In this document: piece after piece, positions 2,961 to 11,039 of the stretch | Layout: the number at the start of each line of letters is the position of its first letter | Position numbering within the stretch: the first letter of the stretch is position 1 | Source of the DNA: Octopus vulgaris | Lineage: Eukaryota | Length of the DNA: 64,000 nucleotides | NCBI GenBank assembly: GCA_951406725.2 | Contig: OX597814.1 | Location: 131,316,001 to 131,380,000 of the forward strand | Direction: 5' to 3' | Notes under the pieces: model-generated | The model's input: the letters and a program-made list of their open reading frames with translations, nothing else | Databases searched by the model: none | Told to the model about the DNA's origin: nothing | Position numbers and translations under genes: made by a program

Positions 2961-3549
2961 TAAGAATATGGAAATAGGAAATTTAGCGTGACTATCAGAG
3001 TCGGTAAGATAATAAAAATATTTAGAGTGATAAGGCTCATGTTATTTACTCGCTTCGTCGACCAGGTGGTGCATGAGGTTCAATGACCGACACAGCAATA
3101 TCATTATCGTCTGCTGCAATGATAAAGGAAGAGCTACGTAGAAAGAGGCAACTAGAAGCATCAAACTGACGAACCAAATTTGAAAGTGTGATGGCAAAAT
3201 TGATTAAGAAGAGAATTAACTTGGAAGGAAGTTTATACTTAGACTGTTCTCGTAGGAGAAGCGCATAGCTAGGAGTTAACTGTTCTCTCTGCTTGTCTTT
3301 TGTCGAATTGGATAAGGCTCCTTTTTTTCTTTGTTTTGTTTTGTTTTTGTTTTGATGGGAGTTTCGCGCTCTGTATGCTAAATGGCGATGGCTGAGAAGA
3401 CACGGCGTAGAGGAGGGGAAAAGAGTTCATCAGAATTGTGCCAGCCATTTTTTTCACAGATAACCGTCAACAAAAAAATGAGAATTTAGTAATGAATTCA
3501 GTGCGGAATTTAAGTATGCAGATTGGTGTCACGTCATGACTCGGATCTC

Positions 3550-3755: not shown

Positions 3756-4740
3756 CAGCCCAACTGTCTCGATTCCAAGGACACATTAATGCCGGTTGCC
3801 AAGTTCCCATAGCTTGTAAATGATTGAGATCACACCAGTTCACCCCCTACTCACGGAGTAAACCTAGTAAAAAAGAAAAAAAAATTAATTTAGTTGCAAA
3901 GAAGGCAGGATCGCAGTGCCATCAAGAAAATGACCATACTTGATACGCAGAAAAAAACTTGGTATAAATTCTATACAATGAGCCAAGTGTAAGCCTTGAA
4001 ACTACAACAGGTGACTAACAAGAAAAGTGGAGTTCGTATGTGATCGACACACAGGAGTAGTTATTAATTATTAGTCATCAATCATCAGATAAAAGAGTAA
4101 TTATGAAATAGATTCCTTCAGTTTCCTAGAAGGTCTCCTAGAAATTGTTGTTAGCTTTTTGTTACCTAGGTGACATAATTAGGTATGGAGATGAGGGGGA
4201 AAAAAGTTAAGGAAGATGTAATTTTTACTGGCAACAAAGGATTTCTTTCCCAGGGTAACAGGCAAGAATGTACGACGCTTCTGTACGAAGTTCGAATTTG
4301 CATGGTAAGCGTAAATGTGGGCTGTGTCATGAATGCTGAGAATTTATGAAGGTTGCAATGGAATAAGGTGAAGCAAAGTCCGCTGCAGGTGAGGGGAAAG
4401 ACAGATGAGTTCCTCTCCAATATTTTGTAAATTCTTAAATAGCTCTCCTTCTGTGTATATATGTACTATCAAACTAACATGATTTTTATTGAACTCATAA
4501 TACTTTTTGTTGAATACTTTCTTAAATACTTTCTTGTAAACTGTTTTCAACATTTTCTTATTATTATCAAAGAATGTACAACTGTATTTTAATACTTTTC
4601 TGATAACCAGTACTTAACACAACAAAGCTTATACAAAGCTTTACATTTTACTTTTGACAATCTTTTTCTAAAAAAGTGAAACCGGTCAAGTCAAGAAACA
4701 TCTTTAAAATTGCATTTTCAAACTTTCTTTCATATATATA

Positions 4741-5110
4741 GGCGTAGGAGTGGTTGTGTGGTACGTAGCTTGCTTACCAACCACATAGTTCCGGGTTCAG
4801 TCCAACTGCGTGGCACCTTGGGCGAGTGTCTTCTACTATAGCCTCGGGTGACTGGATTTGGTAGGCGGAAACTGAAAATAAGCCCGTCGTATATATGTAT
4901 ATGTTTGTGTGTCTGTGTTTGTCCCTCCACCAACATCGCTTGACAACCGATGCTGGTGTGTTTGCGTCACCGTAACTTAGCGGTTCGGCAAAAGGGACCG
5001 TTAGAATAAGTACTAGGCTTACAAAGAATAAGTCCTTGGGTCAATTTGCTCGACTAAAGGCGGTGCTCCAGCATGGCCACAGTCAAATGACTGAAACAAG
5101 TAAAAGAGTA
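4741..5110 (+). mobile_element. SINE family A (tRNA-like head, CORE-like block, internal TA/TG tract)
   Basis: Head GGCGTAGGAGTGGTTGTGTGG..GGGTTCAGTCC, CACCTTGGGCGAGTG, tail GAAACAAGTAAAAGAGTA; more than 12 homologs in the window. Confidence 0.92.
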
Positions 5111-9353: not shown

Positions 9354-9909
9354 GTAAATAGTCGTTGCCGAAAATCTCAGTAGCTGTAACACGAAAGTGA
9401 CTGCATTTAACAAGGATGCAACGACCTTGGCCTTCGTATTACGTTGAAGTAGCATTGCCGACATATCTGTCATCACTAGCCCCTTGTTGTACCCTCATCT
9501 ATGATCACCACAATGCCGCAGAACCTATTACGATGAGGACATTTGAAACTGCTGACGTGGTTTGGAGGCGAGTTACTCTTAATCCTGCGGAAGTTTTATC
9601 AGCTCAGCAGAAACGGGATGCCATCGCTTCATTAGCATTAACAGTCGTGTTTAATCTGCATATCTCCAATATCTCTTTGGAGTTTGGCTAACTGCTATAC
9701 CGTTGAGAACGGCTGGTGTCCAGCAGAATAGTTCTTACTAATTCTTTCTAACCTTGACACAAGGCCGGCACTTTTGAAGTAGGCGGGGAGTTAATTATAC
9801 TGACCTTGACTTCGGCGGCATTTCAACTCAAAACGTAGAGAGCCGGAAGAAATGTCATTAAACATTTTGTCTTTTTTTCTGACACCTCTCGGCGCACAAC
9901 GTGCGATGC

Positions 9910-10090
9910 ATCGGTAGGTTAAGACTAATCTGTCTCACGACGGTCTAACCCCAGTTCACGTTCCCTGTTAGTGGGTGAACAATCCAACGCTTTGCGAATT
10001 CTGCTTCGCAATGATAAGAAGAGCCGACATCGAAGGATCAAAAAAGCGACGTCGCTGCGAACGCTTGGCTGCCACAAGCTAGTTATCCTG
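9910..10090 (-). rRNA. 28S (LSU) rRNA pseudogene fragment, domain V peptidyl-transferase region
   Basis: Minus strand reads CAGGATAACTAGCTTGTGGCAGCCAAGCG..TTTTTGATCCTTCGATGTCGGCTCTTC..GGATTGTTCACCCAC..GACCGTCGTGAGACAG, recognisable eukaryotic LSU sequence with scattered substitutions. Confidence 0.93.
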
Positions 10091-10244
10091 CAGGAGTGGC
10101 TGTGTGGTAAGTAGCTTGCTTACCAACCACATGGCATCTTGGGCAAGTGTCTTCTACTATAGCCTATAGTCGACCAAAGCCTTGTGAGTGGATTTGGTAG
10201 ACGGAAACTGAAAGAAGCCCGTCGTATATATGTATATATATATA

Positions 10245-10286
<42 letters not shown>

Positions 10287-10483
10287 TGTCTGTGTTTGTT
10301 CCCTCAACATCGCTTGACAACCGATACTGGTGTGTTTACGTAGCCGCAACTTAGCGGTTCGGCAAAAGGGACCGATAGAATAAGTACTAGGCTTACAAAG
10401 AATAAGTCCTGGGGGGCGATTTACTCGACTAAAGGCGGTGCTGAAGCATGGCCGCAGTCAAATGACTGAAACAAGTGAAAGAG
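10091..10483 (+). mobile_element. SINE family A abutting the 28S fragment
   Basis: Family A head to tail with a short deletion removing the B-box region; followed by TSD copy TAAACATTTTGTC. Confidence 0.9.
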
Positions 10484-10589
10484 TAAACATTTTGTCAGGT
10501 GCGATTACAAACCGGCATTTTACACGCGTTTGAACTTCGGGCCTGCATGTGACACAAATGCTTTACCTGGCCTCTGCAGTAGACGTTTT

Positions 10590-11039
10590 GGATCTTTTCC
10601 TTTTGAGGGCCAGATTTCAACACAATTTCTAGTTAACTAAACACTTTAAAACTTCGTATACTGGTAGAATGTGTCAAAAGAAAACATTAATTTCACTTGG
10701 CTTTCTTGATAAATTTGTAATTCGTTTGTTTAATGTAGTTTAATTTTTCGAATTTTAACCAATCCTATGCTCTCATTTGAGCTAAAATCATTTGCTGCGT
10801 CTAAAACTGAGACAACATCCTGTAACTAACCCTCACCCTCCCCCTAATTTTTTTTTCTTAATTGTTAAATTAATTTAATTGTTACGCGTGTAAAAAAAAC
10901 TAAAGCAATGGAAAATAATTTAAACAATTAACATACAAAATAATTCTATAATTTTTATACACTACCAGTATACGAAGTTTTAAAGTGTTTAGTTAACTAG
11001 AAATTGTGTTGAAATCTGGCCTTCAAAAGGAAAAGATCC
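10590..11039. mobile_element. MITE with 78-bp TIRs and 8-bp TSD (Merlin-like)
   Basis: TIRs 10590-10667 and 10962-11039 with one mismatch, starting GGATCTTTTC; TSD GACGTTTT at 10582 and 11040. Confidence 0.93.

Follow-up and report, generated by a model that had tools for sequence, protein, structure and literature searches.

Sequence derived from 28S rRNA is known to adjoin a SINE in the 28S-derived SINEs (SINE28). In the human genome, fragments of non-coding RNA are found joined to the 5' end of a retroelement, with a single target site duplication (TSD) around both, forming 28S rRNA/LINE-1, tRNA/LINE-1 and 5S/LINE-1 chimeras. According to the available text of that study, which cites SINE28 as its ref. 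110, antisense orientation is ascribed to twin priming, and the 28S pieces measure 50-482 nt and are 83% sense (PMC13174262). Tailless retropseudogenes, with ten 28S cases in human, result from internal A-rich priming on non-polyadenylated RNA and keep a TSD (Noll et al. 2015, PMC5322556). In their work on circRNA-derived pseudogenes, Dong et al. pointed out that non-collinear copies can also arise when reverse transcription crosses open, structured RNAs whose ends lie near each other (PMC4897178). The R2 reverse transcriptase (RT) jumps only from the 5' end of its template and adds a few untemplated bases (PMC8594491), and RNA-derived DNA circles made by a LINE have been described (PMC3510499).

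We report on a locus within a 64,000-nt stretch of the Octopus vulgaris genome (the window). It was the first to be found of a small class of recurring rRNA retrocopies that are looped for one turn, and it is a variant of the known retrocopy chimeras. No earlier description of permuted rRNA retrocopies, or of misread modifications in rRNA pseudogenes, was found in the open-licence literature, which for circular rRNA and RtcB listed three archaeal papers.

A permuted 28S piece and a SINE inside one duplication

The locus consists of the following features (window positions; native numbers refer to the 28S rRNA).

9806-9858, plus strand: left part of an older interspersed repeat, the insertion target, with matches elsewhere in the genome
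9859-9871, plus strand: left TSD, an exact 13-nt repeat whose 3' end is the putative primer for the rRNA cDNA
9872-9874, minus strand: three A beyond the A4 run of the native sequence, which may be due to slippage, untemplated addition or a short tail
9875-9898, minus strand: jumped-back 28S segment, native 4084/4085-4107 (22/23 identical, window 9897-9875 corresponding to 4085-4107)
9899-10088, minus strand: main 28S segment (peptidyl-transferase centre, PTC), native 4118-4306 (94.7% over 190 columns; Rfam RF02543)
9949, minus strand: G in place of U4256, equivalent of human m3U4530, likely an RT misreading
10087-10094, no strand: 8-nt palindrome at the head-to-head joint of the rRNA 5' end and the SINE 5' end, identified from the sequence and the heads of the SINE family
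10090-10483, plus strand: almost complete SINE that lacks its first 3-4 nt (its head matches 13 times in the 64-kb window)
10484-10496, plus strand: right TSD, whose first 4 nt prolong the SINE tail repeat (candidate priming microhomology)

The earlier note on this DNA had proposed that one 13-bp direct repeat encloses an antisense 28S fragment and a sense SINE, and this was borne out. The repeat has only two matches in the window, even with one mismatch allowed (0.42 expected by chance). The rRNA and the SINE lie in opposite orientation, 5' end to 5' end, with one TSD around both and none between. The other SINE copies checked in the window carry no TSD comparable to the 13-bp one, which makes this duplication atypical for a SINE alone and leaves a small chance of two separate insertions.

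The left flank (9806-9858) has 40 other matches at 82-89% among the best 40 of 345 candidates. It had been suggested that the old repeat rejoins once the block is removed. The effect is real, the right flank agreeing with the continuation of 14 paralogues more than random window positions do (P 0.002); it is also weak, with a mean of 8.2/20 nt, and no paralogue was found when the right flank was used alone as query. Just to the right of the insertion, at window positions 10590-11039, lies a MITE-like element with 78-nt inverted arms, 99% complementary and 294 nt apart. No tRNA gene was seen near the locus, nor any sign of function for the insert, which is likely to be a single retrotransposition scar without function.

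The SINE, which we take to be of an octopod type, carries a TA/TG microsatellite in its centre and has lost about 25 nt inside its head. This deletion was considered as part of the insertion event and rejected: 80 matches to the deleted form occur across the genome, so it is not specific to the event.

The 28S piece was compared with the native 28S of the same genome, a 4889-nt copy (L050:4810-9698) from one unit of the rDNA array on C20. It also matches the Rfam family LSU_rRNA_eukarya (RF02543) on the minus strand at 9927-10087 (E 4.7e-48). The alignment is non-collinear, in agreement with the circular permutation proposed earlier: native 4118-4306 is followed by 4085-4107 and then by AAA, making one turn of a 223-nt loop (4084-4306) that is 7-10 nt short. 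The earlier picture of a circle of about 220 nt lacking only GTTACCA holds for the single turn; the gap covers those 7 nt (4108-4114) if CAGG is counted as rRNA and 10 nt (4108-4117) if it is left out. CAGG cannot be assigned because it lies inside the palindrome shared with the SINE head. What had been read as a hairpin linker is not foreign but consists of native 4298-4306 joined to native 4084-4089, with a few substitutions; the jumped-back piece thus measures 23-24 nt, not 15. Its exact 5' point may lie anywhere in 4081-4085, and position 9898 is either a decayed C4084 or one untemplated base.

The junction pattern has one match in the 2.8-Gb genome, the locus itself. There is thus neither a tandem repeat nor a family, and the earlier idea of a PTC-derived tandem repeat with a multi-copy junction is not supported. 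For the same reason we rejected the junction as a repeat family or satellite, and the composite as a 28S-derived SINE family or satellite.

Microhomology at the back-junction is little or none. In the native sequence, positions 4306/4307 form a U-A step in the middle of a palindromic hairpin; folding of native 4079-4316 was no better than that of shuffled sequences (z 0.03). A predicted pairing of the fragment ends that could aid a jump was found for the 4081 start only (0/40 controls as close), a start chosen post hoc; it was unremarkable for the 4084 start (8/40 controls as close) and absent in five other loops. The 28S piece ends at the A run 4104-4107 plus three A, without a poly(A) tail and with a TSD. 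Complementarity between target and RNA at the rRNA priming site is at most 1 nt (G4108 matching the TSD).

Probable misreading at a modified-base equivalent

Human C4447, U4498, G4499 and U4530 are named as modified (PMC6954407); m3U4530 is located at the PTC (10.1101/2023.11.23.568509), and m3U is strongly misread by reverse transcriptase (PMC10245971). An offset of 274 is the only one that places all four human positions inside the 28S segment; hence U4256 is the equivalent of m3U4530.

Among 18 short dispersed copies, none of the 189 columns is changed as often as U4256: seven copies carry a change there, against 32/1100 at the remaining T columns. The corrected P is 8e-5, or 1e-3 when the window copy is left out. 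It is changed in none of 15 copies running past the 28S end. In the comparison by copy type, which covers a larger set, seven of 20 isolated copies are changed, against none of 22 copies that are long or lie in arrays (Fisher P 0.003). Two of the seven came first from a search selecting non-T, and both appear also in unselected searches. Speaking against a misreading, 0/7 isolated copies each were changed at the m1A and m1acp3-pseudouridine equivalents, which we presume to be correctly placed by their motifs. A further modified-site control pattern gave 26 matches, 22 with native letters and four changed at two or more of three open positions; a control pattern not fitting the native sequence gave three matches, all unchanged.

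Some copies begin or end at the same place. L275 (L275:1501-2172), a young and 100% identical copy of 28S 4257-4888, starts right after the m3U equivalent. Its 5' end carries a fold-back of 4257-4279, and its 3' end is A-rich. Two other copies (L030:1503 and L057:1484) end at 4255 and continue with GT, thus meeting the m3U equivalent from the other side.

The copy in the window is confined to mature rRNA and carries a likely RT signature at a modified-base equivalent. Its template was likely mature rRNA, and the misread position supports the RNA template that had been proposed. From homology and the genome-wide pattern, we infer that U4256 is methylated in Octopus vulgaris.

Other looped copies and other SINE joints

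Searches for rRNA copies, each scoring its best 40 candidates, gave 500 loci. The sample drawn from these comprises 205 distinct, isolated copies that lie entirely within mature rRNA (139 of 28S, 47 of 18S and 19 of 5.8S; median 346 nt), with arrays, copies running off the locus and copies with spacer sequence left out. A back-jump was found in eight of the 205. Closed loops comprise the window locus and at least four more (L100, L102, L105 and L328), that is 5 of the 205 sampled, or 6 with L226; a function is unlikely for any of them.

L100, C26:21683548-993: 28S 53-~432 then -3-63; closed loop that begins and ends with the same 11 rRNA nt
L102, C10:~37154405-805: 28S 414-434 then -2-410; closed loop, 3 nt missing
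L105, C3:169442218-704: 28S 22-411 then -1-96; closed loop, 1.2 turns
L328, C3:~179460845-1004: 28S 357-432 then 278-362; closed loop, same 6 rRNA nt at both ends
L226, C21:35198864-9325 (L226:1065-1526): about four 18S 1-128 units in tandem, with their joints at the mature 5' end

Without L226, closure to within 12 nt is seen in four of seven back-jumps; were the second piece placed at random inside 1 kb, P would be 1e-5. The window locus was itself the query and L102 came from a test for closed loops only; with both removed, two of five close this tightly (P about 0.006, calculated by hand). The two open back-jumps are L053 and L159. Back-jump flags at L017 and L083 lay in arrays or repetitive segments and were dropped, and no permutation was seen among the 19 isolated 5.8S copies.

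Three loop junctions (L100, L102 and L105) fall at -1 to -3 relative to the 28S start given by Rfam, where the mature 5' end is predicted to lie. This points to RNA ends and not to rDNA circles. Of four copies that reach the 28S 5' end without spacer-like sequence upstream, three are looped. The junction ends vary (411, ~432 and 434 to the 28S 5' end; 432 to 278), and the sample also holds 20 forward skips, five inversions and one 18S-to-28S switch besides the open back-jumps. Such varied ends and jumps between unrelated pieces indicate a jump-prone enzyme. L226, whose outermost unit lacks nt 1-7, was considered as proof of rolling-circle copying; this was weakened by derived changes common to its units, which indicate that part of the array grew at the DNA level.

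The window locus is not the only head-to-head case. L368 (C11:~48086808-7631; L368:1019-1850) joins the same SINE family to 28S 1006-1522 within a 10-bp duplication, its rRNA piece starting 1 nt past the m1A equivalent. This like layout supports the co-insertion by two-template twin priming put forward in the earlier note. The 5' transduction offered there as an alternative is unsupported, because the two pieces lie on opposite strands and the genome holds no source locus with the junction. In three further copies, two of 5.8S and one of 18S, a SINE head follows on the same strand within about 10 nt downstream, without a convincing TSD. These copies (L192:1110-1652, L195:1501-2030 and L222:888-1702) carry a full-headed SINE, like U6/LINE-1 chimeras, and are potential seeds of rRNA-headed SINEs. 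SINE adjacency at L483 and L494 was weak and left out of the counts; flank matches at L249 and L295 were of low complexity or at the null level. In contigs of other organisms, four organisms match part of 9440-9925, and the aligned contigs are paralogous repeats that leave the unique flank and the junction uncovered.

Several other arrangements were seen among the rRNA copies. Near-full-length dispersed 5.8S copies are frequent (138 candidates; L183-L195 and L246-L255 region of the set). L092:1380-2090 holds a copy of 28S 455-928 with an inverted 868-928 piece, and its two flanks are long inverted copies of each other. Repeated 28S pieces of ~190-200 nt, spaced by several kb, form clusters at C29:25.64-25.70 Mb and C23:13.05-13.10 Mb, which are probably segmental or tandem duplications. 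Many dispersed long copies (L009-L016, L020, L061 and L069; e.g. L009:778-3189) start at 28S 3336-3369 and run past the 28S end, and the array unit L002 is also interrupted there. We take this to be the R2 insertion site; the long copies are possibly due to an rDNA-targeting element carrying downstream rDNA elsewhere.

Mechanism, rival readings and known systems

The best reading, which we hold with about even confidence, is two-template twin priming in which the RT, on reaching the 5' end of a 28S fragment, jumped to the 3' end of the same fragment. Two nicks staggered by 13 bp would account for the TSD. The bottom-strand end would have primed on the SINE tail, with which it shares the 4-nt microhomology. 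The top-strand end would have primed internally on a 28S breakdown fragment, where a run of A ends at position 4107. A likely LINE-type RT would then have run 24 nt to the 5' end of the fragment near 4084 and jumped to the 3' end at 4306, giving the junction seen. Further on, it would have read a methylated U4256 as G, and it may have stopped 7-10 nt before its own start because the first cDNA was already annealed there. Finally, the SINE cDNA and the rRNA cDNA would have joined at the palindrome. At L105 copying goes 75 nt past one turn, which means that the primer does not always block further copying.

Twin priming could also have used a covalent 28S RNA circle (4084-4306), made by ligation of a breakdown fragment and copied either for one turn or after a nick near 4108-4117. 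We consider this possible, if distinctly less probable. An end-to-end RT jump on one linear fragment and a covalent circle yield the same DNA and cannot be separated by genomic sequence; all the closed-loop data fit a circle just as well. L105 and L226 both exceed one turn, which keeps the circle alive, and the nucleotides repeated at both ends of L100 and L328 correspond to an exact turn. The U-A step at 4306/4307 also favors it. However, no two loci have the exact junction in common, that of the window is single-copy, and the L226 array is partly DNA-level growth. Moreover, three junctions use the predicted mature 28S 5' end, which should carry a 5' phosphate, and RtcB-type ligases are not known to accept a 5' phosphate. 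The self-jump is therefore placed ahead of the covalent circle: the junctions differ at each locus, jumps between unrelated pieces are common in the sampled copies, and the mature 5' end is probably a poor RtcB substrate. An RNA-derived DNA circle from a LINE may be a further route to a looped copy.

Two separate insertions, in which one element brought the TSD and the other later landed right at the inner edge of this duplication and added none itself, are improbable. The SINE family is dense in the window and its copies often lack clear TSDs, and the SINE tail is more diverged from the family majority (16/193 columns) than the rRNA piece from its reference (9/189), but this difference is not significant (P 0.21). 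A base-exact landing would moreover be needed, and needed twice given the layout of L368. It is also unlikely that the two 28S segments came from different molecules, or from the halves of a nicked one, through an intermolecular jump, the near-closure being partly chance or due to a shared cut near 4108-4117. L063 does start at 4084, open back-jumps do exist, and of eleven 5' ends listed for 4075-4125, that of the window among them, seven fall at 4111-4120, two of these seven being halves of copies split by a later insertion. The rate of closure within 12 nt is nevertheless far above chance, and a single fragment with a nick amounts to the same loop. Had a small circle of extrachromosomal rDNA been opened and captured at a break, the same permutation would result, and long DNA-type rDNA pieces are scattered in the genome. 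The G at the m3U equivalent, the sister junctions at the predicted mature RNA 5' end, which would be meaningless in DNA, and the little or no microhomology at the junction already largely refute this reading, leaving it very improbable.

The value of the locus lies in its record of a mechanism, the locus itself being likely inert. Recurring closed-loop copies imply either in vivo self-jumping by a LINE RT or an unrecognised pool of circular rRNA fragments. We tentatively raise the idea, without giving it great weight, that animal germ cells ligate rRNA breakdown fragments (28S 1-~432, 278-432 and 4084-4306; 18S 1-128) into covalent circles that retrotransposon enzymes copy into the genome one turn at a time; genomes would then be a fossil record of circular rRNA species and their base modifications. 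Since non-collinear retrocopies need no back-splicing, counts of circRNA pseudogenes call for caution. Dispersed rRNA copies can report modifications, as a misreading or stop at the m3U equivalent, from the genome alone in species without modification maps. SINE RNA and rRNA fragments have repeatedly been copied at the same break (two head-to-head and three same-strand joints), which provides raw material for rRNA-headed SINEs.

The octopus locus has both sequence hallmarks of a twin-priming chimera, namely opposite orientation 5' to 5' and one TSD around both pieces. Like the human 28S/LINE-1 chimeras, it unites a non-coding RNA fragment and a retroelement in one TSD, with the RNA piece antisense; the partner here is a SINE, and the available text on the human cases does not mention circular permutation (PMC13174262). 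It shares with tailless retropseudogenes a 3' end at an internal A-rich site, the lack of a poly(A) tail and the TSD. Those are collinear and show extended target-RNA complementarity in the available description, whereas here complementarity is at most 1 nt and priming would have been followed by a jump back and a second template (PMC5322556).

As in circRNA-derived pseudogenes, there is a non-collinear back-junction and few or no terminal A. Those pseudogenes show the same exon-exon back-splice in independent copies; here the source is rRNA, and the junctions, known from genomic sequence, are not splice sites, differ between loci and are each single-copy, the sister loops having other ends (Dong et al. 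2016, PMC4897178). SINE28 likewise places 28S sequence next to a SINE, whereas the window junction founds no family and its rRNA is antisense to the SINE.

The proposed jump resembles that of the R2 RT, which passes from the 5' end of a template onto a free 3' end and adds 0-5 untemplated bases. The R2 jump was shown in vitro, and the available text on it does not mention one onto the same molecule; ours is deduced from the genome (PMC8594491). Finally, circularly permuted archaeal 23S rRNA also presents a permuted rRNA, formed there via a circular intermediate. According to the available part of that source, the archaeal case concerns a whole functional rRNA permuted by BHB splicing, whereas the octopus loops are small, dead genomic copies of rRNA fragments in an animal (10.64898/2026.03.23.713588).
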